Of a stretch of 42,080 nucleotides of DNA, positions 1 through 16,087 are shown one piece after another. The stretch's first letter is position 1. Each line of letters starts with the position of its first letter. Made by a program: the position numbers and the translations under genes. Location: contig CAZMXD010000001.1 of assembly GCA_964570185.1 (NCBI GenBank), forward strand, positions 1 through 42,080, in the 5' to 3' direction. The stretch comes from an uncultured Nitrospina sp. (GTDB lineage: Bacteria; Nitrospinota; Nitrospinia; Nitrospinales; VA-1). The notes under the pieces are model-generated. The model had not been told where the DNA came from. It did not search any database and saw only the letters and a list, made by a program, of their open reading frames with translations.

Positions 1-386
1 ACCCCGGTTACGGATGTGATACCGGGTACAACAAGAAAAGGAATATTGGATTTCTTGGCAGCTTGTATCTCTTCACCACCGCGTCCAAAAATAAAAGGGT
101 CCCCTCCTTTGAGTCGGACGACAACTTTTCCTTCTTGGGCTTTTTCAACCAACAGTGAGTTGATTTTTTCCTGTTCCAGGCTGGCAATACCTTCTTTTTT
201 CCCGACATAAAAAATTTCAGTCTCCTTTTGTGCGAAACGAAGCAGGTCTTCATTTACCAGGTGGTCGTAAAGGATGACCTCGGCTTTCTGTAACCAGCTT
301 TTTCCTTGCAGGGTCAAAAGGCTTACATCTCCGGGGCCCGCACCGATAAGGATTATTTTCCCTGGTTTGTTCTTTGAATCATTCAT
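1..386 (-). CDS. cobA: uroporphyrinogen-III C-methyltransferase (SUMT), N-terminal part; the gene runs off the left edge
   Basis: Absent from the ORF track because there is no stop in the window. My reverse-complement translation from ATG 386..384 reads MNDSKNKPGKIILIGAGPGDVSLLTLQGKSWLQKAEVILYDHLVNEDLL...VVRLKGGDPFIFGRGGEEIQAAKKSNIPFLVVPGITSVTG. GAGPGD, GGDPFIFGRGGEE and VPGITS are classic SUMT/CysG-type motifs. The start overlaps the rsmA stop by 8 nt. Confidence 0.8.
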   Translation of the reverse strand, partial: MNDSKNKPGKIILIGAGPGDVSLLTLQGKSWLQKAEVILYDHLVNEDLLRFAQKETEIFYVGKKEGIASLEQEKINSLLVEKAQEGKVVVRLKGGDPFIFGRGGEEIQAAKKSNIPFLVVPGITSVTG

Positions 387-1167
387 TGGAAGAGTCAATG
401 TGATTGGCCAAGTTTGCGAAGTCAGACATGGTCAGGGTTTCTCCGCGTCTCGAAAGGTCAATACCGGCAAGACATGTTTGCCCTTGTTTGTTTTCAAAAT
501 TATTTTTCCAGGCTTTCAAATTATTCTTGAGCATTTTTCGTTTATGGAAAAATGCCGCATTGACTATTTTAAAAAACAGTTGTGGATCTTTCACTTGTAC
601 CTTGGGTCGAGGCAGAGGTTTCAATGAAAACAGGGTTGAATCTATTTTCGGCCGGGGTGAAAAAGCGGTATTGGGTATTTCCAAGAGCCGTTCAACCTGG
701 CAATGATACTGCACGTAAACTGATAAGGAACCGTATTCTTTATTTCCCGGTTCGGCGGTAAGTCGGTCGACCACTTCTTTTTGCATCATCAAGGTCATAG
801 ACTGAATTCTGTTGCCAAAGTGAATCAGTTTTTTCATTATATGAGTTGCGGCGTAATAGGGAAGGTTAGATACAACCTTGAACCCTCGCTCCAGGGAAGA
901 GTAGTCGTATTTCGCGGCATCTCCTTCAATGATTCTAAATGAATAGGCCTCATTTTTAAAACGATTTTCGAGTTCCCCGCATAATTTGGGATCCAGTTCT
1001 ATGGCTGTTAAGGATCTTGATAACGGGAGTAATCTCTGGGTGAGTATGGCTTTTCCGGGACCTATCTCTACGACATCATCTTCTGTATTAATTTGCGCGA
1101 GTTCGACAATGCTTTTCGCTATTTCGGAATCGACCAGAAAGTTTTGCCCGAGAGGCCTTTTTCTCAT
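379..1167 (-). CDS. rsmA: 16S rRNA (adenine1518/1519-N6)-dimethyltransferase
   Basis: 262-aa ORF. N-terminus KRPLGQNFLVDSEIAKSIVE, SAM-binding VVEIGPGKAILT and the NLPYY motif are typical of KsgA/RsmA. ATGA start/stop overlap with pdxA at 1164..1167, and pdxA-ksgA linkage is conserved. Confidence 0.93.
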   Translation of the reverse strand: MRKRPLGQNFLVDSEIAKSIVELAQINTEDDVVEIGPGKAILTQRLLPLSRSLTAIELDPKLCGELENRFKNEAYSFRIIEGDAAKYDYSSLERGFKVVSNLPYYAATHIMKKLIHFGNRIQSMTLMMQKEVVDRLTAEPGNKEYGSLSVYVQYHCQVERLLEIPNTAFSPRPKIDSTLFSLKPLPRPKVQVKDPQLFFKIVNAAFFHKRKMLKNNLKAWKNNFENKQGQTCLAGIDLSRRGETLTMSDFANLANHIDSSNE

Positions 1168-3988: not shown

Positions 3989-4170
3989 TGACTAGATTCC
4001 TTTATGATAAGGCGTTGAGTTACCTTAAACCCTTGTTGTTAATAAGCTTCCGCTTCCTGTAGGGTCAGATGATTAACAATAGCTTATATTATCATATTAG
4101 CCGGGGATAAAAATAGGTTTTTGGCATAAACGCACGACATTTTCAGGAAAAAAATTGGAAAATTTAGCAT

Positions 4171-5088
4171 ATGTTTAGTTTTTTGGAAAAAAAGAAAAAT
4201 GAACCGGAAATCAGGGTCCTTGCAAGGGAACGCAGTCCCTATAATGAAATTTATGTCATCCGAAAGGGCGATTATCGGGAGCTTTGGTTCAAGGGCAATG
4301 GAGATTACTTTCTTCAAAGTCGCGTAAATATAAGCCAGCAAAAGCAACTGGCCTTGGTCTATTCAAATATGATGATGGCGTCATTACTTTTTTGTCCTAA
4401 CCCCCGTAAGTTACTGATGGTTGGATTAGGCGGGGGCTCGGTCACCAATTTTCTCAGCGAGTGGTTTCCGGATTTAAAAATTGATGTGGTAGAAATTGAT
4501 AAGAAAGTAATTGAAATTTCCAAAAAGTATTTTTTTCTTCAGGAATCTAATCACTATCGAGTTTTTCAAGAGGATGGGAGAGTGTTTATCAAAAACCGAA
4601 AAGGGCAGGAACAGTACGACTGGATCATCCTTGATGCTTTTAAAAGTGGTTCTATACCCTACCATTTAAAAACCCATGAGTTTTACAAAGAAATTCGTTC
4701 TATTTTAAAACCTAACGGGGTGGTTGGATCGAACTTGTATGGTAAAGGCAATGCTTTAAAACCCCGTGACACCAAGACTTTTTTATCTGTTTTCCAAAAT
4801 ATATATTGTTTTGAGGATGCGGAGAATGTCGCGACAGTACTCATCGCAAATGATGGCCCGCGCTGGAGTGAAAGAAAAATTCGCGGGAGCGCGAAAACTT
4901 TTAAAAAAATGCCAGAACCTTTTTTAATGCAAGAGGTTGCTAAAAACTATCAGGCGGGGAAATTTGTTGAAGAGTCTGCAACCAGATTTGATGATCATTT
5001 TTCGGATAAAGGGTTTCTGCATGATGTGAACAAAGAAAACCTGCAAAATATTAAGCCCCGGCGTTATCCCATAAAAAATATTCACTGA
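4171..5088 (+). CDS. spermidine synthase-like SAM/dcSAM-dependent transferase (function not assigned)
   Basis: 305-aa ORF. LLMVGLGGGSVTNFL ... DVVEIDKKVIEISKKYF ... WIILDAF is the Rossmann-fold pattern of spermidine-synthase-family proteins. No TM segments. Confidence 0.65.
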   Translation: MFSFLEKKKNEPEIRVLARERSPYNEIYVIRKGDYRELWFKGNGDYFLQSRVNISQQKQLALVYSNMMMASLLFCPNPRKLLMVGLGGGSVTNFLSEWFPDLKIDVVEIDKKVIEISKKYFFLQESNHYRVFQEDGRVFIKNRKGQEQYDWIILDAFKSGSIPYHLKTHEFYKEIRSILKPNGVVGSNLYGKGNALKPRDTKTFLSVFQNIYCFEDAENVATVLIANDGPRWSERKIRGSAKTFKKMPEPFLMQEVAKNYQAGKFVEESATRFDDHFSDKGFLHDVNKENLQNIKPRRYPIKNIH

Positions 5089-5109
5089 AAAACGGTTTGA
5101 GAATTTTCT

Positions 5110-8100
5110 TTACCCGGGTAAGTCGAAGACCTGCACTCTTCGGCCGTCAAAGTTGGCTGCGGCCAGGCGACCGTCATGGATTGAAAGTCCGGCCGTCTTG
5201 CCAAGTTCCCCGATTCTGTTACCTTGTTTGCGATAAAAATCTATCACATCGAAATTGTTATTCAAATGGATGATCTGACTGTGCCAAAAGTCGGAGGCAT
5301 ATATTCCATATTGCGGGTCACAGGCAAGAAAATAAATATCATCGAAACCCAAATCTTCCTTACTTACTTTATTGATCAAATTTCCCTCGGCATCAAAATG
5401 CTTTAATAAGCATTCTGACCGGTCACCGATTATAGTTCCGCCCTCCTTGAGACAGAAAACTCCGCAGGGTCCATTCAAGTTTTTGGATTGCTCGGTAGTG
5501 AGCGATTGTAGGGTTTCTTTGCCATTTGAATCAAAAATTGTAATACGGTTGTGGTCAGGGTCTGCGACATGAATGTAATCTTGAGGATCGACAGAAAGGG
5601 AAAAAACATGACCAAGAATTCCTTCTTGAAATTGAAGGATAAAGTTTCCCGTCGCATCAAATTTTTTTATCGCTCCGTTACCCTCGTCAATAACATAAAT
5701 ATTATTCTGGCTATCCGTTGCCAAATTCGCTGGATATTTAAAGGCGTTAGAAGTGTTCCCCCAAGAGCCAAAATGAAACTTATATTTTCCTTCGGATGTA
5801 TAGCAAAATATATGGTGTTGCTCATAGTCGGTGACTAAAAGATCCCCGCTACTATTATGAGTAAGACCTTGCGGGGTTATGGGTAACCCGATTTCTGAGC
5901 CTGCTTTGCTGAAAGAAAAAATTTGTTTTAGCGAGGCCTGTGGCTCGGAAGGATTTGCCTCCGCAAAATTAAAAATCAAATTCAGCAAACTTTTTATTTT
6001 TGCGGTTCTTTTGAATTTCAACTCCAGTCGTTCAATTTTTGCCTGAAATTCGCTAATTTTAGCTTCCACATTAATGGATTCATCAATATCGGAAACTTGA
6101 AAAGCGGAGGCCAGTTGTTTTTGTTTTTCTCTGTAACCAAGTAATTCAAAGTTTTGGGATTTTCTTTCTCGCGAAATTTCTTGGGTCTGTCTTTCGATTG
6201 TCTCGGAATAAGATTTGAGCGCATCGATTAAATTTGAGCCTTCCTGACTCGGATTTAATATCCTGACGATTGCGGTGCCTATAACAAGCTGATGCAAATT
6301 GAGATTTTCATTGATTTCGATTCCTTTAATCATTCTTCGCATTAGATTTAACTGAAACTCTATGATGGAGATATTATTTTGAATGCCGATGGGAGTTATT
6401 TTGTCTTCCGTCCCCACTTGTTTCAGTTGTGCGTCTAGATCTCTTCTTTGTCTGCCCAAATCATCAAGTTGTATCAATAACTCTTCGGTTTTATCTTGAA
6501 AAACGGATTGAGTTTTTAGCGTGGCCAGATTTTTCTCGATCAGTTCTTTTTTTTGATTGGCAAGGGAACCGGGTTTATATCGAATAGGCCCCCATGACAA
6601 GATTTCATCCTCAAACTTAATTTCGGCAGATTGCGCCCGGATAATTTGAGAGATTTTTTCTATATCCAGATTTTCAGAATCAAAAGCAACAGGCGAGAAA
6701 TCATCAATACTGGGTTCAATGATAGAATTGTCTTCATTAACCCAATGGGGAAAGGCGGCATCCATTGTTTCAAATAACTGGGGTTCTAGATATTCAAGTA
6801 TTTGCCACTGTTCATGGAAACGGATCAATATTCTTATGGCATTTTCGGTGAAAACAGATCTTGAAGTTAGTCCGCAAACAAGGTCCTTTATTTTTTCGTT
6901 ATTCACGGCTTGCCTGGCAAGAATCTTCAAAATTTGACAATGCGCTCTTAGAGGAAATTGTAATTGCAAAAGAAGATCCATTGTCCTGCAATTTTGATGA
7001 TATTTAATAAGAAAGGAGGGCAGCTGATCGCTTCCGTCATTTCCTAAGATTTTGACCATAGACTCCTCCGATTTTTCTTTCTGGTCAAAATAATTCTTTA
7101 TTACATCTGTTGATTTTTCCCACTGGCGTAACATGCAATCAGAAAGGCTTTCCCGCTGGATCTCGCTGGTTTCGCTTTCAGAAAAATAATAAATACATTC
7201 GTAAAGCTGTTGAGATGCTTTTCGAAAGGTATTGAATTTAGAGCGGGTTTCCCGGAAGTATTTTCTGTCTTCTTCTTCGTAGGTATAAAGGTCGTGATTA
7301 AAATCTCGAAGTCCTTGAGGATCTTTTTGAATTAAAATTTGCTCTTTTATCTGTTCCTCATTAAATTGTTGGGCTTTTTCCTGCCAGATCTCAAAAGTGG
7401 ACAACATTTCTTCTCTGCATTGATTGAGTCGGTTCTCTAATAATGAGATGGCAAGATTCAAACTGGACTCAGTAATTTCTTTGCCGGCAAAGGCTAATCG
7501 TCCTAAACGAAGCGGGGATTGCATACTTAGGTTTTTAGTAGAATCGTCCAACAACTTTAAAGTGTGTTCTAATGCAACAAAAGATTTGGCCTCGTTTTTG
7601 AGTTTTTCCTGTACGAGAGAATAATAATTAACAAACTCATAGGAAGAGGGTTCCTGTTTTGAAAGCTTTTCCGACAGGATATCTTCTTCTTCTGCTGAAA
7701 CTTGATATTTATCGATTTTTGTATCAAATGTTGAGCCGATAAATAAATTTCCCGCGGTATCCACTAATGTAAGGCAAGGCGCTTCCAGTGGCATGCCTGC
7801 GCTATCAATCGAACTCAAATATTGACCGAAGCATGAAAATATCTGGATCCGGTTATTGTTAAGATCAGCGATATAAAGTAAATCGTTCGATGCGATCGAA
7901 ATACAAAGCGGATATTGGAATTGCCCGGGTTCGGTTCCGGTTTGACCGAAAGTTAAAATTTTCTGCCATTGGGAGTTGAATTTGTGTATACGGTGATTTC
8001 CGCTGTCCGCAATAAAAAAGTTTCCACAACTGTCCTTGGCAATGGATGTTGGAAACTCGAATAAGGGGGGAGCTATTAGGTTTAACGGGGTTTCGTACAG

Positions 8101-8601
8101 GTCTGCCAGGTTTTCTTCAAGAGTGGTTCCTCTTTGTCCTACCCAACCCAGGGATTTACCATCCTTGTTGAAGAATTGAATTCTGTGATTGTATCTTTCC
8201 ACCACAATTAAAACACCAGAAGAATCAAGAAGTACATCGTAAGGTTCGTTCAATTCCCCTTTATGATCTCCACAGGAACCGAAAGATTGAAGTGGCTTGC
8301 CTTGCGAATCAAATTTTTGTATTCGATGATTCCAACTGTCTGCGACAAAGATGTTACCTTCTTTATCTACGGCAATACCTTTAGGGTATTGAAGTTGTCC
8401 GATATCTTTTCCTTTTTCGCTAAAACTTGTTATCAGATTGAATTGCGGATCGTAAACCTGTATGCGGTGATTAAAATCATCGGCTAAGAGAATATTTCCT
8501 TCCCGGGTGAAGCATAGTCCGGAAGGAGGAGATAATTCCTCAGGCCCTTCTTCTTGTTTTCTATATGAATTTTTGAAATTTATTGGGAAAACGGAGGTCA
8601 T
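5110..8601 (-). CDS. large NHL-repeat protein: N-terminal NHL propeller, long alpha-helical middle, C-terminal NHL propeller
   Basis: 1163-aa ORF. About six N-terminal repeats of the type GNILLADDFNHRIQVYD, GNIFVADSWNHRIQKFD, NHRIQFFN, NHRIHKFN, NNRIQIFS. About six more lie in the last 280 aa (LLVTDYEQHHIFCYT, IYVIDEGNGAIKKFD, IHVADPDHNRITIFD ...). The middle roughly 580 aa is rich in E/K/Q/L. No N-terminal hydrophobic signal. Confidence 0.85.
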   Translation of the reverse strand: MTSVFPINFKNSYRKQEEGPEELSPPSGLCFTREGNILLADDFNHRIQVYDPQFNLITSFSEKGKDIGQLQYPKGIAVDKEGNIFVADSWNHRIQKFDSQGKPLQSFGSCGDHKGELNEPYDVLLDSSGVLIVVERYNHRIQFFNKDGKSLGWVGQRGTTLEENLADLYETPLNLIAPPLFEFPTSIAKDSCGNFFIADSGNHRIHKFNSQWQKILTFGQTGTEPGQFQYPLCISIASNDLLYIADLNNNRIQIFSCFGQYLSSIDSAGMPLEAPCLTLVDTAGNLFIGSTFDTKIDKYQVSAEEEDILSEKLSKQEPSSYEFVNYYSLVQEKLKNEAKSFVALEHTLKLLDDSTKNLSMQSPLRLGRLAFAGKEITESSLNLAISLLENRLNQCREEMLSTFEIWQEKAQQFNEEQIKEQILIQKDPQGLRDFNHDLYTYEEEDRKYFRETRSKFNTFRKASQQLYECIYYFSESETSEIQRESLSDCMLRQWEKSTDVIKNYFDQKEKSEESMVKILGNDGSDQLPSFLIKYHQNCRTMDLLLQLQFPLRAHCQILKILARQAVNNEKIKDLVCGLTSRSVFTENAIRILIRFHEQWQILEYLEPQLFETMDAAFPHWVNEDNSIIEPSIDDFSPVAFDSENLDIEKISQIIRAQSAEIKFEDEILSWGPIRYKPGSLANQKKELIEKNLATLKTQSVFQDKTEELLIQLDDLGRQRRDLDAQLKQVGTEDKITPIGIQNNISIIEFQLNLMRRMIKGIEINENLNLHQLVIGTAIVRILNPSQEGSNLIDALKSYSETIERQTQEISRERKSQNFELLGYREKQKQLASAFQVSDIDESINVEAKISEFQAKIERLELKFKRTAKIKSLLNLIFNFAEANPSEPQASLKQIFSFSKAGSEIGLPITPQGLTHNSSGDLLVTDYEQHHIFCYTSEGKYKFHFGSWGNTSNAFKYPANLATDSQNNIYVIDEGNGAIKKFDATGNFILQFQEGILGHVFSLSVDPQDYIHVADPDHNRITIFDSNGKETLQSLTTEQSKNLNGPCGVFCLKEGGTIIGDRSECLLKHFDAEGNLINKVSKEDLGFDDIYFLACDPQYGIYASDFWHSQIIHLNNNFDVIDFYRKQGNRIGELGKTAGLSIHDGRLAAANFDGRRVQVFDLPG

Positions 8602-8725
8602 GTTAGCCTTTGATGAAACGGAAGGGTGGCTGTTAGAAAATCGTGATCCTATTCAGTCAGGCCGCATTTAATCATAAAAGCCGGCATATTACAATCGACC
8701 ACGAAGGCAAGAAAACATAAAATTC

Positions 8726-9427
8726 CTACAATTTTATTGCCACACCGATTTGGTTATCGCTTTTCTTAATGTTCCATTGGTTTGAGGATTCGACCTCCTC
8801 TTGCCAGACTTTTAGGACACCGGGAAAATCTGGATGCAGATCATGAAGAATCAAAATGCCACCCCTACGGACTTTAGGGGCCCAAATATCGAAATCCACT
8901 TTTGCGCCACGGTCAAAAATCGGCTGATGATCTTCAGGAGGAACCATTTTCCCATTTTTAAGCCAACCTTTAATTCCATACTTATGAATATCTTCGGCAG
9001 ATATAATCAATGGACCAGATTCAAAGTATTCATGCCATCCATCTATAAATAAAAGGTCGATTTTTTTGTCTGCCGGCCATTGTTTAGCCGCTTTTTGGGA
9101 GTATGCGCGGCCTGAAGTCACTACTTTTTGCAATTGCCAATAAGCGATATTATCGTTCCAGGACTTCCATATGTCCTGTTCCATAATGCATTCTGCGCCC
9201 TCTATCAGGTTCCAATGGTCGAAACAATATAGATGTCCTTCTCCGGAATTCTTAATCGCATTTCCCAAAATTACCGAACTTCTGCCATGCCACGAACCTA
9301 TTTCAACAATGGTACCGGGATTGTTCAATGCTGTAAGGTAAAGTATTTCGGCATGTTCTTTTGGCATATATGGGGAAGAAATGTGTTGTGCCCGATTCCA
9401 AATATCGTCAAATGTTTTTACAAACAT
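8726..9427 (-). CDS. class I SAM-dependent methyltransferase (Methyltransf_24-like)
   Basis: 233-aa ORF. VEIGSWHGRSSVILGNAI (motif I), LLFIDGWHEY and GGILILHD follow the pattern of O-methyltransferase-like proteins common in glycan clusters. Confidence 0.7.
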   Translation of the reverse strand: MFVKTFDDIWNRAQHISSPYMPKEHAEILYLTALNNPGTIVEIGSWHGRSSVILGNAIKNSGEGHLYCFDHWNLIEGAECIMEQDIWKSWNDNIAYWQLQKVVTSGRAYSQKAAKQWPADKKIDLLFIDGWHEYFESGPLIISAEDIHKYGIKGWLKNGKMVPPEDHQPIFDRGAKVDFDIWAPKVRRGGILILHDLHPDFPGVLKVWQEEVESSNQWNIKKSDNQIGVAIKL

Positions 9428-9602
9428 GAGCTATCCTTTTGCAAAAAAATTGGGTTATGAAAATAATTCCCGGGAGTGATCAATGGAAGAATCGTTGATA
9501 AAGATTACTCGATAGGATATTTGAACGTATTTTAGTTTGCGATAATAATCGTGGCCAAAGTTACGTTTTGTAAAGGAATAGTTTTAAAACAAGATTGGTT
9601 TT

Positions 9603-11120
9603 TTAAATGGTTTTGTTGTGTCTCTTTGCAAGTAAGAATAATTGGTAATCCAGGGCAAATCCAAACATCTTGTGTTTCCACCTGAATCTGACAATTTTTG
9701 CAAAGACTTCGTAGACACATACGAAAAGTATTTTTTTGATTGGATTGTCAATCCTTCCTTTTGCCCATATTATGGTATCAGAATCAAGAAACATAAATAT
9801 ATAACTCGATATCATGGAGACCAATTCTGCCTGTTTGGTGGTGACCCACGGTGTTTGTTTTTCGTAAAGCTTCATTTGTGCCCAACCGTCGAGCTGTTTG
9901 GGTTCTTGAAAACCCAGTTTGACGGCAGTGTCGTATAGAGGTGTGCCGGGATAGGGCATGTAGATAAACATTTGTCCTCGATTGCGACTGTCATAAGTAA
10001 GAAATTTATCTAGCATTTTAATAGTGGCATCAATTTGGCCGCTGGTTTTCTTGGTTAATTCCTGATGAGTATGGTTTAACATGGGTATCCCAACCAGTGT
10101 TGAGAAGATGACTTTTACACCATACTTTTGACACTTTTCAGCAAACTTATAATTGTCTTCAACGTCCATATCTTTGTCAATGACGTCCAAGGATTCTTGA
10201 TCGCCTGATTCGGCGCCGCATAAAATGCTATAGGTCCGAGAATCTCTTAATAACTCCCAAAGTTCATCATCGGCTTCGGCTAATTGTTTAGCTCTGCCAT
10301 CGAGATTGCCGAGTCTTAAAGTCAGGCCCCTGTCGATAATACCCTTCAGGATGGCTTTCGCTCTTTTAACATTTACGAAAAATAAGCTGTCGTACAAATT
10401 GACTCCGTTGACATTGTAATTGTTCTGTAATCTTTCTAGATCATCCAGAACAGCCTCTGGATTCAATCCCACCCAGCTCCGATTATTTACGGTAACTTCG
10501 CTACAGAAAGCACACCGATAAGGGCAACCATAACTAGAGACATAATTTATGGTTCTGTTTCCAAATTCGGTCACCATGAGACATTTTTCTATGTCAACCA
10601 GATGATAGGGTAGAGATGGCCAGTCATCAATCGATTCAAGACTTCTATCAGCATTGGTAAACACATCTCCATTTTCTTTCCAAATTACTCCAGGAATGTC
10701 ATGGTAGCTCTCACCCGCCTCAATCTGTTTTACAACATCATACAAGGCTCGAGCTCCTTGCCCTTTGATCACAATATCAACATAGGGACTTTCAAGGACC
10801 TGATAGGGGTGAACTGACGGGTGCCACCCGCCCCAAACGATTTTTATGTTTTTATTTGCCTTTTTGGCAATTTCGCTTGCCTTAAGTCCCCCTTGGATTT
10901 GTAATCCGGTCATGGCAGATATGCCTAAAACCAAGGCTTCTTTTGCAGATTCTCGAATTTCCTCATAGGGGTCGGGATAGAGATTTTCGGCAATGATATT
11001 TATTGGATAACCTTCCTTGTCAAGAAAACGGGAAACGCAAATAAGGGAAATGGGAAGGTCGACGGGTTTGTAATAAGGGTCGGGTCTCGGGTTGAATAAA
11101 AGTATTGAGTTGTTCATCAA
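9603..11120 (-). CDS. B12-binding-domain radical SAM protein
   Basis: 505-aa ORF. N-terminal Rossmann-like B12-binding region (LVLGISAMTG ... VWGGWHPS), followed by the CX3CX2C cluster SSYGCPYRCAFCSE. The architecture is typical of class B radical SAM enzymes. Substrate unknown. Confidence 0.85.
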   Translation of the reverse strand: MMNNSILLFNPRPDPYYKPVDLPISLICVSRFLDKEGYPINIIAENLYPDPYEEIRESAKEALVLGISAMTGLQIQGGLKASEIAKKANKNIKIVWGGWHPSVHPYQVLESPYVDIVIKGQGARALYDVVKQIEAGESYHDIPGVIWKENGDVFTNADRSLESIDDWPSLPYHLVDIEKCLMVTEFGNRTINYVSSYGCPYRCAFCSEVTVNNRSWVGLNPEAVLDDLERLQNNYNVNGVNLYDSLFFVNVKRAKAILKGIIDRGLTLRLGNLDGRAKQLAEADDELWELLRDSRTYSILCGAESGDQESLDVIDKDMDVEDNYKFAEKCQKYGVKVIFSTLVGIPMLNHTHQELTKKTSGQIDATIKMLDKFLTYDSRNRGQMFIYMPYPGTPLYDTAVKLGFQEPKQLDGWAQMKLYEKQTPWVTTKQAELVSMISSYIFMFLDSDTIIWAKGRIDNPIKKILFVCVYEVFAKIVRFRWKHKMFGFALDYQLFLLAKRHNKTI

Positions 11121-11302
11121 TTTTTAATCAAGAAATAGACTCTAATCATAGCGATACTTTTAGCAGAAATTTTAAACGGAAGCGTTGTAATTATGAGTGA
11201 CTCTGCCTCTGGTATCAGAGACCCATTTTCAGCGTTTGATTATAACTAATTTTTAGGTGTGAAAGTCGAGTTTATACGAGTCTGTTTAAGGTGGGGCAGG
11301 TT

Positions 11303-14300
11303 TTAATCGGTAATTATATGCTTTTGAATTTCAAAATCGGAAGCGGTCCGAGTCTGCTGTATCTGGAATCGTCGAAAAAGCATTTTAGGCAATAATTTTA
11401 GCGCATCCCATTTGCTTTTGAACAAAACATTGCCTTGGCCACGATAGGTAAAATATTTTATATCCGCAAACTGATGCTTCCAAATAGAACGGAGATATTT
11501 AAAATACATTTTAAGGGAATAATTTTTAACAAAAACCCAAATATCATTGCGTTTGCATAAATAAACATAGCGGTCGCTATACAGACCTACTGTTGCTGTG
11601 CCAATATGGTAAACCTTTGACTTTGGAAGATAGACGGCTTGGAATCCTTGTAACTGGCTACGCATATTTAGATCGACATCTTCCGCAAAAATGAAGAAGT
11701 CTTCGTCAAATAGGCCGATTTGATCAAAAAGTTTTTTTCGATAAATTCCCGCTCCGGCACAGGCCCCAAAAATATAATTTTCCAGGTCGTATTGACCGAT
11801 GTCTTTTTCGCCCTGGCCTCGTCCGCCACCTGCTGACCAGGAATGGAAGAGGTCGCCTGTGTTATAAAAAACATCCCGGTTATCCAAGAACATCATTTTT
11901 GTGGTTCCCATCCCGCATTCAGGGTGTCGTTCCATTCCTTCATAAAGCTGCGTCAGCCAATCAGGGGTAACTTCTATATCATTGTTAAGTAGCGCTACAT
12001 ACTTGGCATTTGAGGTTTTAATCCCCTCATTACAGGCAATAGCGAAACCCATATTATGAGGAAGCTTTAGTAATCTCACCCACGGATATTTTTCTTCAAT
12101 CAATTCGCGGGAGCCATCCGTTGAACCATTATCAACTAAGATGACTTCAAAGTTTTTAAAATGAAGTTGTGCCAAAGAATCAAGACACATGCCGACAAAA
12201 TTAATTCCATTCCAATTGGGGACAATGACACTTACAACAGGGTTTTCGGGACAAATGCGTTCTGAAGGTTCAAGTTTTACATCCGTACTAATTACAGAAT
12301 CAATTGTGGAGCCCTGTGTTTCTTGAACTTCTTTCAGCATAGATTGAGCTCCTTGGTGGGAGGGATTTAGTTTTATACATTTTTTTAACAGTACTTTTTT
12401 TTCCCCCAGGGGGGCTAACCTAGCCATTCTAAAGAAAGCATTACCTTGAATATGCGTAAATTGTTCGGAAGAATCTGTGATTTCTTTAAATAAGGCATAG
12501 GCCCCGGATGGATTACCGATATTTTCAAGAGCAGAGGCGTTAGCATATTTTAGAGTTCCATTTTCTGGATCTCCCCCCAAATACAGGCTTAAAGTTTCAT
12601 GTTTTGGCCTTATTTCAATATCCATTTCTGATAGAGCTTTTACAATCATAGTATGTAGCCACTCTCTATCTTTTTGCGACTTAATGTCTTTAGATTCATC
12701 CAATAAATTTTTTAGCCTGTCACGATTTTTTATTGCCAACAAGCATTCGATACAGAGTTCCCAGGAATCCCAGCGTTCGGGGTGTTGTTTCCTATAGCTG
12801 TCAAAGTTTTCCAGGGCTTCTTGGTATTTTTTCTGGTTTTTTAGCTGAACTCCAACCAACAAAGAATTTTCATGGTTTGATCCAAAGTATTTTATCTCTT
12901 CTTCATACAGCTGAATTGCCTCATCAAACTTATTCAATTTGATTTTTATTGTGGCAAGATGCAATCTCAAGTCTGGCCACTTAGGAGATAATTTAATGGC
13001 TTTTTCAAAAGCCTTTTCCGCTTGTTTAGGCAAATTGAGCGCGGAATAGATTTCTCCTAAATAAAGATTGCCCTCCTTGTCGTCAGGATTCAAGCGCAGT
13101 AGATTTCGACATTCCTTGAATGCTATGGTCAATTTACCTCTTTCCAAATCTTTCCGATTTAATGCCGGGGCATGCCACTTCCCTTGTGTCAGCTCTTGCA
13201 TTTGCCGCATTTTATCCTGCCACGGTAATGAGATTGGATTTGTCGTTGTGAAAATTGAACTTTTCAAGCGGTAAACGGGGAACCTTGCCAATACCACTTT
13301 TAAAAGTTCATATTTTAAACCAGTAACTTCTTCCAGCTTTTGCATATCGAGATCTGGAAATGTTTTGATAATGTATTTAGGTTTATGTTTTATTAGCCCG
13401 CCTATTATACTGTCATAAAACCCCTCGAGATCCTTTGTGTCCCATGGACCTATTGTATAGTGGAGAAAATTATCTGCTGCCGGGCAATCGGTCAAATGAT
13501 AGAGCTGAGAGAAGGTGCCCCATACAAAAATTCGTTCGTTGGACTCTCGACGCATTCTCATGAGTCGTTTAAGAATTTTCCCCAACCTTGGAATATATAA
13601 GTATTGATCATATTTTTCATATCGCACCAGAGTTTCGCGATCAGTGGGTTTTACGTAATAAAAAAGAAGGGACTTTATATTGCAGATGAGAATGATTCCA
13701 AAAATCACCGCAACTGTTGTTGCCAGTGCATGTTCCTGGTGCATAACCCAATGCATTCCCAGACCGCATCCTGCGGAAAGCAATGCAAACCAGGGGAGAT
13801 AGTGGTACCTGGAAAACGCACGTTGTAAAACGATAGTGCTCAAAGTTATTAAGGTGAAAGTGGCCAACCAGAGTGTTTCTGCTTTAGCGACAAAGAATGC
13901 AAGTGCTGTTATACCTCCTATCCAAATAGGTAAGGCTTGCTTTATTAGTAAAGCTATTTCCGACCAAATACTGAAATGAAGAGTTTTGGTTTTAGTAATC
14001 CGCAGGGTAGTCGCCATGCGAGTCTTCATTTGCTTCAAGGATTGGGCATCCAAAAATCCAAGCTTCCACTCAATTAAATTAGAAATAATGATTACGCCTG
14101 TTGTTGCAAAGGCGAAAATCAACGCGGATGATTCTCCATGATAAATCCATACTAAAGGAGTTATGGCTCCGCCGTAAATAATCATAGTGTACTTAGCTAT
14201 GGCGGCAAGGCCAAAGCAAAGCCCGGCATAAAAAACTGAGCCATTAAATAAAAAAGCAAGCCCTGAAAAAATAAATGGGATATAAAATTGTTCGAAATTA

Positions 14301-14686
14301 AAAGAGCCGGCTGTCAGATCTGGTGAAGTTCCATAAAACGAGTAAAGTATTCCGCCTGCAAATGCGGCCCATGGATTTTGTGTGACAACCAAAACCAGCC
14401 AGTAAATGGAAATGCACGCCGCTGCATGGAAAAAAGTTTGTAAATTTCGGATCCTTGCATGACCTTTTTCGGGAGAGAAAAAAACCTTGTCGAAAAGCAT
14501 CATCTTCCACATGGGGATGCCTATAATCTGCAGGTCATCTTTCCAGCTAAAACCTTTCTTCGCAAACCGGGCGCAGTAGGTGTAAATAGCAAAATCATCG
14601 TCCAAAGGAAAGTTCCGAAAGGGCAGTCGGCAAATACCTGCCAAGACGATAATAAGTAGAATATGAAATATAATTAAAGGGTCCAT
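11303..14686 (-). CDS. three-module fusion: polytopic GT-C-like membrane domain, TPR repeats, C-terminal GT2 glycosyltransferase
   Basis: 1127-aa ORF. The first 340 aa or so are highly hydrophobic (about 10 TM), with an acidic first loop FPLDDDFAIYTY. Residues around 510-800 carry TPR-like AxxxY/FxxAL repeats (GEIYSALNLPKQAEKAFEKAIKLSP ...). The C-terminus has VSVIVPNWNG...VILVDNGSTDGS...LLNNDIEV...FAEDVDLNMR, a GT2 (rhamnosyltransferase-like) pattern. Confidence 0.8.
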   Translation of the reverse strand: MDPLIIFHILLIIVLAGICRLPFRNFPLDDDFAIYTYCARFAKKGFSWKDDLQIIGIPMWKMMLFDKVFFSPEKGHARIRNLQTFFHAAACISIYWLVLVVTQNPWAAFAGGILYSFYGTSPDLTAGSFNFEQFYIPFIFSGLAFLFNGSVFYAGLCFGLAAIAKYTMIIYGGAITPLVWIYHGESSALIFAFATTGVIIISNLIEWKLGFLDAQSLKQMKTRMATTLRITKTKTLHFSIWSEIALLIKQALPIWIGGITALAFFVAKAETLWLATFTLITLSTIVLQRAFSRYHYLPWFALLSAGCGLGMHWVMHQEHALATTVAVIFGIILICNIKSLLFYYVKPTDRETLVRYEKYDQYLYIPRLGKILKRLMRMRRESNERIFVWGTFSQLYHLTDCPAADNFLHYTIGPWDTKDLEGFYDSIIGGLIKHKPKYIIKTFPDLDMQKLEEVTGLKYELLKVVLARFPVYRLKSSIFTTTNPISLPWQDKMRQMQELTQGKWHAPALNRKDLERGKLTIAFKECRNLLRLNPDDKEGNLYLGEIYSALNLPKQAEKAFEKAIKLSPKWPDLRLHLATIKIKLNKFDEAIQLYEEEIKYFGSNHENSLLVGVQLKNQKKYQEALENFDSYRKQHPERWDSWELCIECLLAIKNRDRLKNLLDESKDIKSQKDREWLHTMIVKALSEMDIEIRPKHETLSLYLGGDPENGTLKYANASALENIGNPSGAYALFKEITDSSEQFTHIQGNAFFRMARLAPLGEKKVLLKKCIKLNPSHQGAQSMLKEVQETQGSTIDSVISTDVKLEPSERICPENPVVSVIVPNWNGINFVGMCLDSLAQLHFKNFEVILVDNGSTDGSRELIEEKYPWVRLLKLPHNMGFAIACNEGIKTSNAKYVALLNNDIEVTPDWLTQLYEGMERHPECGMGTTKMMFLDNRDVFYNTGDLFHSWSAGGGRGQGEKDIGQYDLENYIFGACAGAGIYRKKLFDQIGLFDEDFFIFAEDVDLNMRSQLQGFQAVYLPKSKVYHIGTATVGLYSDRYVYLCKRNDIWVFVKNYSLKMYFKYLRSIWKHQFADIKYFTYRGQGNVLFKSKWDALKLLPKMLFRRFQIQQTRTASDFEIQKHIITD

Positions 14687-14949
14687 ATGGGTTTAAGGTA
14701 TAACCCTCTTTCAAAGTGCTGGCTGAAGAACAGGTAATTTATTCGGCTTACCTTATCTATAATTTATCGGTAAAATTTTAAGTACGCTTTAGTCGCTATA
14801 TGGCCCGAAAGATTCAGAGGATTGGAAAAGAAAAACTAGCTTAAGTATAAATAAGGCAGACCCGAGGTTCAACCTTCTGTTCTAAACTGTCAGGGTTCGG
14901 GCCTTGCTTGCTTTTCATCTGTATATTAGAGAAAATAGTCCGAAAATTA

Positions 14950-16087
14950 ATGAATATGGTAAATGGAATGCAAGAAGATCACAGTAAACTTTTCAAAGAT
15001 ATCGAAGCTAGAATAGACCAACTCAGGGGGTTTCTTTGACGTTGAAAATAAATTAAAAACCCTTGAATCTTTGGATGAAATAATTGCCCAGCCAGGATTT
15101 TGGGAAGACAATCAAGAAGCGCAGAAGTCTCTTCAAAGCAGGTCTGCGTTGCAACGCCAGGTTGAAATTTGGAAAAACCTTCAAAAAGCCAGTGATGACA
15201 TTGGCGCCATGCTCGAATTATCGGAAGAGGAAAATGACCCCTCCTTTCTAGTTGAAGTTCAGTCCTCTTTAAAAGATCTTGATGAGCAGGTTGCTGGAGC
15301 CGAGTTTAAGGCACTCCTTTCAGAAAAAAATGATTTTAATAACGCTTTCTTAGCTATTAACTCTGGTGCGGGGGGTACAGAGTCTCAGGACTGGGCTGAT
15401 ATGTTGCTTAGGATGTACCTGCGATGGGGGGATCGAAATGGATTTAAAACAGAAGTTCTTGATACCCAGTATGGGGATGAAGCAGGGATAAAAAGTGCCA
15501 CCGTGCAATTCTCTGGTGATTATGCTTTTGGATATTTGAAAACGGAAATTGGGGTGCATCGTCTGGTAAGAATCTCTCCTTTTGATTCCAATAAGAGGAG
15601 GCATACTTCTTTTGCTTCGGTTTTTGTTTATCCCGAGGCGGATGAAGATATTCAAGTGGGAGTGAAAGAAGAAGATCTGAAAATTGATGTCTACCGCGCT
15701 TCGGGCCCCGGTGGTCAGGGCGTCAATACAACTGATTCAGCAGTTCGTTTGACCCATGTACCAACAGGTATCGTGGTTCAATGTCAGAATGAAAGATCAC
15801 AACATAAAAACAAAGCTTCGGCAATCAAGGTTTTGAAAGCTCGTTTATATGAAATAGAGCAGGAAAAGCAGGACGAGGAAAAAAAAGAAATGGAAAAACA
15901 AAAAAAGAAGATTGAATGGGGAAGCCAGATTCGTTCTTATGTTCTTCATCCTTATCGGCTTGTTAAAGACCTGAGAACCAATGTGGAAACCGGCAATGTA
16001 GATGCGGTCTTGGATGGCGACTTAGATATTTTTATCCAAGCGTTTCTGCGTTTTCTTGGTTCGGAACGGGGTGGTGCAATAAAATGA
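14950..16087 (+). CDS. prfB: peptide chain release factor 2, requires programmed +1 frameshift at 15034..15040
   Basis: Frame-0 leader MNMVNGMQEDHSKLFKDIEARIDQLRGFL ends at TGA 15037..15039. The +1 frame continues DVENKLKTLESLDEIIAQPGFWED into the tracked ORF 15071..16087. That ORF contains SPF (RISPFDS) and GGQ (SGPGGQGVNTTDSAVRLTH). The first ATG (14950) is taken as the start; 14956 and 14968 are alternatives. Confidence 0.93.
15025..15040 (+). promoter_or_regulatory. RF2 autoregulatory +1 frameshift site (internal SD AGGGGG, slippery CTT, TGA C)
   Basis: The sequence AGG GGG TTT CTT TGA C is nearly identical to the E. coli prfB site AGG GGG TAT CTT TGA C. Confidence 0.9.

Follow-up and report, generated by a model that had tools for sequence, protein, structure and literature searches.

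A predicted double NHL-propeller protein with an all-alpha core, encoded at the edge of a variable gene island in Nitrospinota

The window analysed here, a stretch of 42,080 nucleotides from an uncultured Nitrospina sp., carries on its minus strand an intact open reading frame that starts with ATG and encodes a protein of 1163 residues and roughly 133 kDa (Table 1). The plus-strand frame across the same interval is riddled with stops. All of the repeat motifs quoted in the initial annotation were located in the translation, both those towards the N-terminus (NHRIQVYD at residues 44–51, NHRIQKFD at 91–98, NHRIQFFN at 138–145 and NHRIHKFN at 202–209) and those towards the C-terminus (DHNRITIFD at 1016–1024 and RRVQVFD at 1154–1160), and the N-terminal sequence quoted there is correct. 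The protein is real and conserved, with an open frame of 1160–1273 residues wherever a relative lies on a complete contig. Its hosts are marine nitrite-oxidising bacteria. A comparison with the PADLOC-DB defence models returned no family at E ≤ 0.001.

Table 1. Features of the double-propeller gene and its surroundings in the window
Feature	Positions	Strand	Basis or remark
Double-propeller gene, whole	5110..8601	-	1163 codons plus stop; single-copy; family confined to one Nitrospinota order
N-terminal six-bladed NHL propeller, residues 1–300	7702..8601	-	Pfam NHL, Thin/TRIM71 matches, DSSP blades; best-conserved part of the protein
Family-specific insert between N-propeller blades 3 and 4, residues 155–183	8053..8139	-	56-sequence alignment; helix 160–168 in the model
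TPR-like helical hairpins capping the N-propeller, residues 301–376	7474..7701	-	Profile and structure match to TPR
First long antiparallel helix bundle, helices 378–426, 436–475 and 480–520	7042..7473	-	Predicted, AlphaFold2 models
Shorter helices 527–619 and three-stranded beta meander 661–675	6574..7041	-	Predicted, AlphaFold2 models
Second bundle, four long helices 677–728, 736–782, 789–833 and 836–880	5950..6573	-	Predicted, AlphaFold2 models
Best-conserved core patch, residues 729–772, turn between two long helices	6286..6417	-	Alignment; core entropy minimum at 721–760
C-terminal six-bladed NHL-type propeller, residues 885–1163	5113..5949	-	DUF5128, Mala_s_1-like, TRIM3 NHL; more divergent
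Conserved promoter-like element TTGTAA-N17-TTAAAT, TG two bases before the second hexamer (extended -10 type)	8666..8694	-	Ends 64 nt upstream of ATG
Spermidine-synthase-like methyltransferase, 305 aa, convergent neighbour	4171..5088	+	PF01564, E 5e-14
Methyltransf_24 (TylF-like) methyltransferase, upstream on the same strand, variable island member	8726..9427	-	Pfam
B12-binding radical SAM enzyme, variable island member	9603..11120	-	Pfam; best NCBIfam HpnJ/BchE/ApyD, all far below cut-off
Membrane TPR-GT2 protein	11303..14686	-	About eight hydrophobic segments (residues 1–345), TPR 489–640, GT2 glycosyltransferase 817–1034

The protein had been described as two NHL propellers placed around a helical region of about 580 residues, and both the Pfam matches and the AlphaFold2 model bear this out, with six blades in each propeller and a helical core at residues 298–884. 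In the full-length model (pLDDT 90.4, pTM 0.88), six four-stranded blades at each end are closed by 'velcro' strands E8–13 and E892–897, and residues 306–880 are helical almost throughout. A pTM of 0.88 for the full length and of 0.86 for the core alone (pLDDT 89.6) points to three parts that are modelled in a defined mutual arrangement, and not to a floppy dumbbell. The two propellers are mutually homologous (BLASTP identity 27–32%, E 4e-15), and just two cysteines, C110 and C1050, are conserved across the whole protein.

The N-propeller has a mean pairwise identity of 66% across the family, with a minimum of 51%. Pfam NHL (PF01436) matches the double-propeller protein over five stretches at E 8.2e-47 (155.4 bits, cut-off 20 bits), and DSSP finds six blades in the N-propeller of the AlphaFold2 model. 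This domain matches the NHL domain of Thin at E 1.3e-58 and superimposes on the NHL structures of TRIM71/Lin41 (Z 37.0, rmsd 2.2 Å, 275 residues, 30% identity) and TRIM2 (Z 36.4). The alignments to Thin and TRIM71 stop at residue 159, and across the 56-sequence alignment R157, E162, L165, T171, F181, E182, P184, T185 and S186 are invariant at the family-specific insert. The C-propeller, for which Pfam returns DUF5128 ('6-bladed beta-propeller') and Mala_s_1-like, has a mean pairwise identity of 49% across the family and on its own matches the NHL domains of TRIM3, Thin and TRIM71 at E 2.6e-27 to 1e-25, with TRIM3 at 2.6e-27. Both propellers are acidic, the N-propeller with a pI of 5.0 and a net charge of -11 (family medians 5.0 and -14) and the C-propeller with a pI of 5.2 and a net charge of -13 (family median pI 5.8).

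Between them, the 587 residues of the core contain 38.3% E, K, Q and L, versus 25.6% and 23.3% in the propellers, in accordance with the E/K/Q/L-rich composition noted in the initial annotation. A coiled-coil spacer is not what the modelling predicts: AlphaFold2 gives a folded all-alpha core instead of a long two-stranded coiled coil, made of TPR-like hairpins, antiparallel bundles of 40–52-residue helices and a small beta meander. The hairpins match consensus TPR proteins in a profile search (E 1.8e-6, profile positions 11–62) and the TPR domain 3ma5 in VIA-align (Z 9.2, rmsd 1.8 Å, 75 residues), while the first long bundle finds generic bundle matches only (Sso2 Z 9.8, STAT1 Z 8.2). The mean pairwise identity is about 36% over the core and 28–37% in its segments, and in the best-conserved patch D733, I738, Q750, R756 and N764 are invariant and K734, P737, F749, M757, N768, R771 and L772 nearly so.

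The absence of a recognisable motif from this middle region was upheld, as no Pfam family matched it at E ≤ 10 save for 12-bit noise. A profile search of PDB sequences with the core returned consensus TPR only, on its first ~60 positions; Foldseek gave no match at E ≤ 0.001, and the best VIA-align Z was 10.4, below the ~13 that the tool calls common for helical models. Against 1.84 billion representatives, phmmer found 42 matches to the core, 19 of them in proteins of about 1100 residues or longer, all at the internal position that the core has in our protein, and the remaining 23 in shorter proteins of 77 to 1035 residues. The core alignment profile also matched five proteins of 312–1066 residues, which we read as fragments since they lie on short contigs and carry NHL domains. 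On these searches the core occurs only within the double-NHL architecture. The NHL fold is known, and the helical core predicted to join the two propellers matches nothing known, whether among Pfam families, among PDB sequences or by significant fold similarity.

The core was found, in single copy, in 63 of 120 Nitrospinota genomes: 47 of 69 in family f1, 4 of 5 in f2, 6 of 6 in f3, 5 of 21 in f4 and none of 18 in f5–f9, a distribution by which the double-propeller family is restricted to one order of the phylum. In G053 and in the f4 genera g20 and g22 (G024, G037), PEPCK, MT and RF2 follow one another with nothing between, and in G046 only a C-propeller remnant of ~220 residues is left. By this gene content, losses take out the block together.

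The promoter-like element upstream of the gene recurs across the family. In 17 of 21 loci its core, T[AG]TG[AG]TT[AT]AAT after TTG, lies no more than 200 nt ahead of the start; across the 20 other loci (779,112 nt) the motif has 16 occurrences, all upstream of the double-propeller gene, and in the window a single one. The full pattern has two copies in the 2.26-Mb genome, the other inside a coding region. On the reading favoured below, the gene is transcribed from its own conserved promoter of the extended -10 type, and not as the passive last gene of the variable operon. Two metatranscriptome contigs lie within the gene at ≥99% identity (positions 5208–5361 and 8198–8358) and give a weak hint of expression, with DNA carry-over as another possible source.

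The gene borders an island whose content of GT2, TPR, radical-SAM and methyltransferase genes varies, within a flanking ksgA-pdxA-PEPCK-MT ... RF2 block that is syntenic across the order. We compared this neighbourhood across 20 loci from 20 other genomes. On the question whether the gene travels together with its methyltransferase and radical SAM neighbours, the answer differs by neighbour. The spermidine-synthase-like methyltransferase, whose scores fall short of every NCBIfam equivalog cut-off, lies convergent to the gene in 15 of the 20, an adjacent Methyltransf_24 orthologue is found in only one (L051, 46% identity) and an orthologue of the B12-radical-SAM gene in four. Directly upstream lies a GT2 gene in seven loci, a B12-radical-SAM gene in five, a gene of unknown type in three, and in one locus each a Methyltransf_24, PhzF, TPR-protein or divergent radical SAM gene; in locus L050 it is a 154-residue ORF of no family, with GT2 right behind.

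Across the 120 genomes, the double-propeller gene and an orthologue of the TPR-GT2 protein (by its GT2 domain) occur together in 57, the double-propeller gene alone in six, the GT2 orthologue alone in one and neither in 56, a co-occurrence that is confounded by physical linkage, since a single deletion takes out the pair, and by common descent, since related genomes are not independent. The f3 genomes G012, G013 and G016 keep both genes, on one contig, at a distance of 62–74 kb. In the f4 genus g18 (G018 and G019, 98% complete), the double-propeller gene is present but no GT2 orthologue at E ≤ 1e-60; upstream of the gene lie different GT2, GT1-TPR and radical-SAM genes. Adjacency to the island may be just inherited gene order, and the gene's own promoter argues as much for independent regulation as for shared function.

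Among known systems, the likeness to metazoan TRIM-NHL proteins (TRIM71/LIN-41, TRIM2, TRIM3, Thin/TRIM32, Brat and Mei-P26) pointed out in the initial annotation stands as far as the best PDB matches go, both by sequence (whole protein: Thin E 3.8e-55, TRIM71 E 2.4e-47) and by structure (Z 37.0), but the analogy in RNA binding is unsupported by the charge of the acidic propellers. Shared with this group are the six-bladed NHL propeller with its NHR[IV]Q[VI]F repeat signature, the C-terminal position of an NHL propeller, the helical region beside a propeller and a probably cytoplasmic location. Unlike TRIM-NHL proteins, ours has two propellers and no filamin domain, and belongs to bacteria of one Nitrospinota order. 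RING and B-box domains had been judged absent, and neither occurs among the Pfam matches at E ≤ 0.01, nor a B-box in NCBIfam; the propeller begins at residue 8 in the model, which leaves no room for an N-terminal RING. TRIM coiled coils dimerise antiparallel, whereas the 587-residue core is predicted to fold into intramolecular bundles.

Single bacterial propellers are also related. The sensor domain of PknD (PDB 1rwi) shares the NHL fold and repeat (E 1.2e-11, Z 27.8), and ScyF (NCBIfam NF035926) matches at E 5.6e-70 with 236.4 bits, short of the 350-bit equivalog cut-off, so that identity with ScyF was rejected. Both are exported or anchored (PknD extracellular, ScyF described as a PEP-CTERM protein), whereas the double-propeller protein lacks an export signal and has two propellers and an orphan core. 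One source annotates the family as 'DNA-binding beta-propeller fold protein YncE'; YncE is not among the 52 PDB sequence matches, and membership in the class of exported NHL/YncE-type propellers was rejected, as heuristic scans found no signal peptide, Tat motif or lipobox in the protein and 118 relatives.

Hydropathy and motif scans agree with the earlier view that the protein has neither a signal peptide nor a transmembrane segment, finding no hydrophobic N-terminus, Tat motif or lipobox. The highest Kyte-Doolittle 19-residue mean anywhere in the protein is 1.03, with a transmembrane segment usually reaching about 1.6 or more. Among 118 full-length relatives none has a hydrophobic N-terminal stretch or an RR motif, and the one lipobox-like string, at residue 59 of a single relative, is a chance occurrence. 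A hidden leader is impossible, because the open frame has room for just 17 further codons before the ATG (1180 versus 1163). By these heuristics the protein is probably cytoplasmic. A periplasmic or surface role reached by non-classical export would be in keeping with most characterised bacterial NHL domains, which are extracytoplasmic as in PknD, and with the membrane location of the neighbouring TPR-GT2 protein; against the scans just described, and with the conserved N-terminus forming a propeller-closing strand in the model, we consider it highly improbable. A cytoplasmic protein with an NHL domain adjoined by a helical region could instead be a bacterial analogue of the TRIM-NHL RNA-binding regulators, binding RNA on the top faces of its propellers and dimerising through its helices, and in sequence and structure alike both propellers indeed match TRIM-NHL domains best, including several whose structures were determined with RNA (TRIM71, Lin41, Brat). 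Yet both propellers are acidic here and family-wide, domains related to nucleic acids, RING and B-box included, are absent, the model assigns the helices with confidence to intramolecular bundles, and the likeness reflects a shared NHL consensus, with an NHL paralogue in the same genome closer (37% identity) than TRIM-NHL (29–30%). This makes an RNA-binding role quite unlikely.

Catalysis by one or both propellers on the product of the neighbouring tailoring enzymes, with a core that serves regulation or oligomerisation, would place the protein with enzymes of the NHL/SGL clan such as peptidyl-hydroxyglycine lyase, lactonases and strictosidine-synthase-like proteins. Pfam SGL/SMP-30 (PF08450) matches residues 20–105 with 35.6 bits against a cut-off of 26.3, and the same fold is found in PAL (3fw0, Z 30.7), SMP-30/gluconolactonase-type lactonases (Z 26–27) and strictosidine synthase (Z 25.6), Z 25–31 in all; the gene context is enzymatic, and the conservation of the N-propeller, with four invariant histidines (45, 92, 139 and 203) and the 155–183 insert, would fit an active site. 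These histidines, however, belong to the ordinary NHL consensus (NHRIQ) and are equally present in the non-enzymatic Thin and TRIM71, the TRIM-NHL matches are clearly better (Z 36–37), and the SGL match spans just 89 of 246 profile positions (130–218), a stretch that related clan families overlap. Identity to the clan enzymes is lower (10–20%), no catalytic residues were identified in the protein, and an enzymatic function seems unlikely to us. A function unrelated to the neighbours, for instance in cell structure, in the cytoskeleton or as a hub of protein-protein contacts in Nitrospinales cell biology, with the position between ksgA-pdxA-PEPCK and prfB-RNase Z simply inherited, is rather doubtful. 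In its favour, the housekeeping genes on either side keep their synteny throughout the order, the gene carries a conserved promoter of its own, the island genes next upstream differ between genomes, and none of the usual surroundings recur in f3 and G020 (there, ankyrin-repeat protein, TPR-CHAT, PhzF-like, glutamine synthetase). Against it, presence and absence track TPR-GT2 closely, with seven discordant genomes and even at 62–74 kb, and Methyltransf_24, radical-SAM and GT2 genes adjoin even in the rearranged loci of G012 and G020.

The reading that we favour, tentatively and at somewhat less than even chances, is that of a soluble, cytoplasmic, non-enzymatic bivalent adaptor that serves the neighbouring envelope-type modification module, which retains the bivalent scaffold or ruler suggested in the initial annotation. 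The family-specific all-alpha core would hold the two six-bladed propellers in a fixed arrangement; binding of an invariant partner would fall to the strongly conserved N-propeller, and the binding or positioning of a second component to the faster-evolving C-propeller together with the core. Such an adaptor would serve a strain-variable island of the membrane TPR-GT2 protein, B12- and SPASM-radical-SAM enzymes, Methyltransf_24 and a sulfotransferase. A more specific version, which we regard as unlikely, is a rigid 'ruler' scaffold in which the core fixes how far apart and in what orientation the two propellers sit, the invariant N-propeller docks on the conserved membrane TPR-GT2 machinery or on its lipid-linked or protein substrate, and the faster-evolving C-propeller and core recruit the radical-SAM enzymes and the methyl-, sulfo- or glycosyltransferases of the given strain. 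If true, the ruler would be a new kind of bacterial cytoplasmic scaffold, one that organises a modular assembly line for envelope tailoring found in Nitrospinales alone.

The window holds a single long frame at 5110..8601 on the minus strand that begins with ATG and encodes 1163 aa, the plus-strand translation of the same interval having stops throughout, and translation of the minus strand yields the N-terminus and every NHL-like motif quoted in the initial annotation. From stop to stop the frame runs for 1180 codons, and since just 17 of them lie 5′ of the first possible start, a hidden leader is impossible. The encoded double-propeller protein matches the Pfam NHL family (PF01436) at E 8.2e-47 (155 bits versus a 20-bit cut-off, in 5 stretches), with the overlapping clan families Teneurin NHL, SGL and SBBP at its N-terminus and DUF5128 (‘6-bladed beta-propeller’) and Mala_s_1-like matches at residues 919-1055. 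The C-terminal 279 residues alone match the NHL domains of TRIM3, Thin and TRIM71 (E 2.6e-27 to 1e-25) and are 27-32% identical to the N-terminal propeller. For the core between the propellers (residues 298-884), Pfam at E<=10 gave nothing beyond a single 12-bit noise match, NCBIfam matches are confined to the propeller parts, and PADLOC gave zero matches for the protein. Two other NHL-repeat proteins are encoded in the same genome, on contigs C280 (1199-1936) and C57 (1899-3719) in frames of 333 and 734 aa; at 37-38% identity to the N-propeller they are closer to it than any TRIM-NHL protein.

Among the 120 best matches listed from 5.8 billion clustered proteins, 118 have lengths of 1137-1262 aa, query coverage of 98-100% and identities from 83% down to 34%, and the other two, of 844 and 763 aa, cover 71% and 66%. 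All named sources among the matches listed are Nitrospinota (Nitrospina, Nitrospinaceae, Nitrospinales, Candidatus Nitromaritima), and the relatives are labelled ‘hypothetical’, ‘NHL repeat-containing’ or, in COG style, ‘YncE’. Location was judged by hydropathy and motif heuristics. The peak 19-residue Kyte-Doolittle mean across the whole protein is 1.03; none of the 118 full-length relatives has a hydrophobic N-terminal stretch or an RR motif within the first 50 residues, and the one lipobox-like string among them, at residue 59, was judged to be chance. Because these signals are missing and distant members carry hydrophilic N-terminal extensions of 60-90 residues, the protein is most probably cytoplasmic, as had been proposed from its lack of a signal peptide or transmembrane segment. 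The extension precedes the propeller in members from families f2-f4 (loci L050-L055, from genomes G007, G012, G013, G020, G019 and G018, and proteins P0116-P0120) and contains a recurring motif, …SSP.A.EFLD…, which the window's protein lacks.

We predicted the full-length structure with a 56-sequence family alignment (A1), obtaining a mean pLDDT of 90.4 and a pTM of 0.88, with no segment below pLDDT 50. DSSP of the model assigns six four-stranded blades to residues 8-300, the ring being closed by the N-terminal strand 8-13, and six blades to 892-1160, with strand 892-897 closing. The core was also predicted alone with a separate alignment of 32 sequences built from translated loci (A2), giving a pLDDT of 89.6, a pTM of 0.86 and the same secondary structure as in the full-length model; the coiled-coil-looking segment is therefore a predicted folded domain. 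Its helical character, noted at the outset, was thus retained, but the model replaces the extended two-stranded rod by antiparallel helix bundles. The high full-length pTM implies that N-propeller, core and C-propeller would be held in a defined mutual arrangement.

Parts of the double-propeller protein: pairwise identity within the family alignment and elements of the core in the full-length model
Feature	Residues	Position	Mean pairwise identity	Minimum	Source
N-propeller	1-300		66%	51%	A1
C-propeller	885-1163		49%	30%	A1
Core segments		core	28-37%	8-18%	A1
Short helices	306-352	core, after N-propeller			full-length model
Three long helices	378-426, 436-475, 480-520	core			full-length model
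Shorter helices	527-619	core			full-length model
Three-stranded meander	661-675	core			full-length model
Four long helices	677-728, 736-782, 789-833, 836-880	core			full-length model

The protein is under strong purifying selection. An insert between blades 3 and 4 of the N-propeller (residues 155-183, with a helix at 160-168) contains nine invariant residues and is situated past the point where the alignments to Thin and TRIM71 stop, and the most conserved stretch of the core, 721-772, lies at the turn joining two long helices. By sequence, the closest PDB entries are Thin/TRIM32 (E 3.8e-55), TRIM71 (2.4e-47) and TRIM2/3 (about 1e-29), with further matches to Brat (about 4e-24), designed Pizza proteins and PknD (1.2e-11). 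By structure, the N-propeller is most like Lin41/TRIM71 (Z 37.0, rmsd 2.2 Å over 275 residues, 30% identity) and TRIM2 (Z 36.4), which stand about 5 Z units above the next matches, Mei-P26 and Brat (both Z 31.9), SOQ1 (Z 31.3), PAL (Z 30.7), NHLRC2 (Z 30.3), PknD (Z 27.8) and lactonases (Z 26-27); Foldseek ranks the matches in the same order.

For the core alone, Foldseek returned zero matches at E<=0.001, and the best VIA-align match among 48,161 chains, a designed helical repeat at Z 10.4, falls below the level of about 13 that the tool gives as common for helical models. The first roughly 78 core residues resemble TPR domains (3ma5, Z 9.2, rmsd 1.8 Å over 75 residues), consistent with a profile match of the core start to consensus TPR proteins (E 1.8e-6), and core residues 79-261 match generic long bundles such as Sso2 (Z 9.8) and STAT1 (Z 8.2). 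ESM Atlas look-ups with residues 298-884 and 521-884 gave no usable match, and fold searches with the whole model, which were filled by single propellers, gave no solved chain aligning across propeller, core and propeller. That only generic helical-repeat and bundle matches were obtained for the core does not prove a new fold.

Searching 1.84 billion representatives with the core alone (phmmer) matched 42 proteins, of which 19 are about 1100 aa or longer and all match at the same internal position as the window protein; the remaining 23, of 77 to 1035 aa, are taken to be fragments. A core profile searched over proteins of 312-1066 aa found 5 matches, which, given the short contigs of their origin and the NHL domains in them, we interpret as fragments. 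Since the long matches share one position and the short ones read as fragments, the core appears, as judged from these searches, to occur only in the double-propeller architecture. It is present in 63 of 120 Nitrospinota genomes, as a single copy each time; among the 57 genomes with a completeness of at least 90%, 31 have it. By family it was found in 47/69 genomes of f1, 4/5 of f2, 6/6 of f3 and 5/21 of f4, all of the same order, and in 0/18 of f5-f9. Several complete single-contig genomes of genus g9 are without the gene, which is thus not essential.

Upstream of the gene lies a variable island of GT2, TPR, radical-SAM and methyltransferase genes. In the protein at 11303-14686 (-), TPRs and then a GT2 domain come after roughly eight hydrophobic segments (residues 1-345), which makes it a membrane glycosyltransferase (TPR-GT2). 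At 1127 aa, it fuses a polytopic membrane domain without a Pfam match to the TPRs and GT2; in other families of the order its parts occur as two proteins, one of about 812 aa and one of about 312 aa, and the split loci often hold a further GT2 of about 320 aa. We searched the same 120 genomes with the 313-aa GT2 domain, whose orthologues are 53-94% identical; this part is unusually conserved, at 72-94% identity across the order. G004, G005, G006 and G009, whose best matches are 36-40% identical and were regarded as paralogues, were left out. Double-propeller gene and GT2 are both present in 57 genomes and both absent from 56, with 6 holding only the former and 1 only the latter, counts to be read knowing that the two genes are usually linked, such that a single deletion removes both, and that kin genomes are not independent observations. 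Four of the six genomes with only the double-propeller gene are 57-83% complete (G095, G067, G086, G009), and the other two, G018 and G019 (98% complete), have other GT2, GT1-TPR and radical-SAM genes upstream; the GT2-only genome, G069, is 82% complete. The f3 genomes G012, G013 and G016 retain both genes, separated by 62-74 kb of a single contig.

The 20 kb around the gene were fetched in 20 genomes across four families, and the ORFs called were compared with the window proteins. A spermidine-synthase-like (SpeE-like) methyltransferase gene (4171-5088, +) is the convergent downstream neighbour in 15 of 20 loci, including G042, where it was missed by ORF calling and placed by a separate search; it is less than 3 kb away in one locus and distant or on another contig in four (G012, G013, G017, G020). 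The same-strand gene directly upstream encodes GT2 in 7/20 loci, a B12-radical-SAM protein in 5/20, unknown proteins in 3/20 and, in one locus each, Methyltransf_24, a PhzF-like protein, a TPR protein and a divergent radical SAM protein; in the twentieth (L050, G007), a 154-aa ORF of no family is directly upstream with GT2 right behind it. Genes for SPASM-radical-SAM, sulfotransferase, GT1-TPR and TylF-like proteins also occur nearby. On the question, raised at the outset, of whether the gene travels with the adjacent methyltransferase and radical SAM genes, an orthologue of the window's Methyltransf_24 is adjacent in 1/20 loci and one of the window's B12-radical-SAM gene is present in 4/20.

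Genomes without the gene preserve traces of its loss. In G053, RF2, a methyltransferase remnant (residues 7-82) and PEPCK follow in order; in the f4 genomes G024 and G037, PEPCK, methyltransferase and RF2 succeed one another directly; and in G046 (L058 7055-7762), where TPR-GT2 is gone, the last ~220 residues of the C-propeller remain beside the methyltransferase, 45% identical to residues 944-1162. G074, a complete single-contig genome, has lost the island, and its methyltransferase (L057 9771-10685) has two in-frame stops, which fits co-decay. The f4 genera g20-g22 and G046 lack the double-propeller gene but have the methyltransferase, which, persisting without that gene in g20-g22, is not strictly dependent on it. 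Strict dependence on the methyltransferase was rejected on the strength of these genomes and of G088, whose methyltransferase has one stop although the double-propeller gene is present. Co-decay was also rejected for G057, whose double-propeller gene had seemed split and whose methyltransferase had seemed to carry a stop: the gene is interrupted by a run of N, at a scaffold gap whose flanks are duplicated, and no stop occurs in the methyltransferase HSP (8-305); this gap (L059, about 8160-8300) makes two frames and mimics a pseudogene in automated tallies.

At 17910-19439 (+) lies the gene of a 509-aa protein that matches nothing in Pfam or NCBIfam and has about 10 or more hydrophobic segments; since several more membrane and unassigned genes come after it, the region at large resembles an envelope-biogenesis neighbourhood. 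RF2 (prfB, 15071-16087, +) is called from TTG at 338 aa, its orthologous frames elsewhere being 311-378 aa; a programmed +1 frameshift near the start of prfB is usual, and may explain the odd start. In f3 loci (L051 2098-7349, L052 6725-8347), a 540-aa ankyrin-repeat protein is convergent with the double-propeller gene, and genes for TPR and CHAT-domain proteins also lie near it in G012, a context unseen outside f3.

When the window and the 20 loci were aligned by eye over the 200 nt preceding the start codon, we found the motif TTG-N(15-21)-T[AG]TG[AG]TT[AT]AAT in 17 of 21, ending 40-132 nt before the start codon, and degenerate variants in the other four. Over both strands of the 20 loci (779,112 nt) we counted its 11-nt core 16 times, always at these upstream sites, and in the window once (8666-8676, versus 0.48 expected). 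The 2.26-Mb genome has two instances of the full pattern, one upstream of this gene and another at C269:451-476, which was treated as chance because it lies in a coding region on the opposite strand. The window element reads TTGTAA-N17-TTAAAT and has TG two bases ahead of its -10 hexamer, suggesting an extended -10 sigma-70-type promoter. A generic sigma-70 and terminator scan of 4000-15200 gave counts no higher than shuffles (31 versus 28.4 promoters, 15 versus 10.8 terminators), and missed the conserved element because its -10 hexamer is without A at position 2. Given this promoter-like element, the gene is probably transcribed on its own whatever lies upstream. Two small contigs of the marine metatranscriptome X20 fall within it (5208-5361, one difference; 8198-8358, none), a weak hint of expression at low depth and with DNA carry-over possible; most X20 bins and a second metatranscriptome, X21, give no cover, and as these are contigs only, such absence is uninformative.

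Support is good for the anatomy, the distribution and the core's orphan status. For function, we tentatively favour a non-enzymatic bivalent adaptor that would work with the variable envelope-tailoring island and the conserved membrane TPR-GT2. Complex prediction of the propellers (1-300; 885-1163) with the GT2 domain (313 aa), using an alignment per chain, returned ‘no answer’ (0.00) and counts neither way. It is also conceivable, though rather doubtful, that the function is unrelated to the neighbours and that inherited synteny explains the gene's position. An enzymatic propeller seems unlikely: the NHRIQ-F motifs are invariant and include His45, His92 and His139, but these belong to the ordinary repeat consensus, present in Thin and TRIM71 too, and so are no evidence of catalysis.

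The closeness of the N-propeller to TRIM-NHL domains brings to mind a TRIM-like RNA binder, which we consider improbable; every part of the protein is acidic (the N-propeller with pI 5.0 and net charge -11, against a median of -14 across the family; the C-propeller with pI 5.2 and net charge -13), a weak argument against nucleic-acid binding. Non-classical export is very improbable indeed.

Nitrospinota are the ocean's main nitrite oxidisers, and to our knowledge very little has been established about their lineage-specific cell biology. The part of the literature that we could consult on Nitrospina NHL-repeat or beta-propeller proteins contains no paper on this protein, and that on NHL, bacterial and coiled-coil proteins contains only eukaryotic TRIM-NHL and unrelated work. 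The NHL propeller itself is known; new here is its use in a paired, cytoplasmic architecture with an orphan helical core, 587 residues with no detectable relative by sequence or fold. Presence or absence of the gene, together with the membrane glycosyltransferase, splits otherwise close genomes. Even without a scaffold role, the protein makes a well-defined structural-genomics target on account of its orphan helical core. Were it to scaffold a variable envelope-tailoring module, it would add a cytoplasmic, paired bacterial use of the NHL propeller, unlike the exported single-propeller forms, and would account for the organisation of strain-specific surface chemistry in Nitrospinota.
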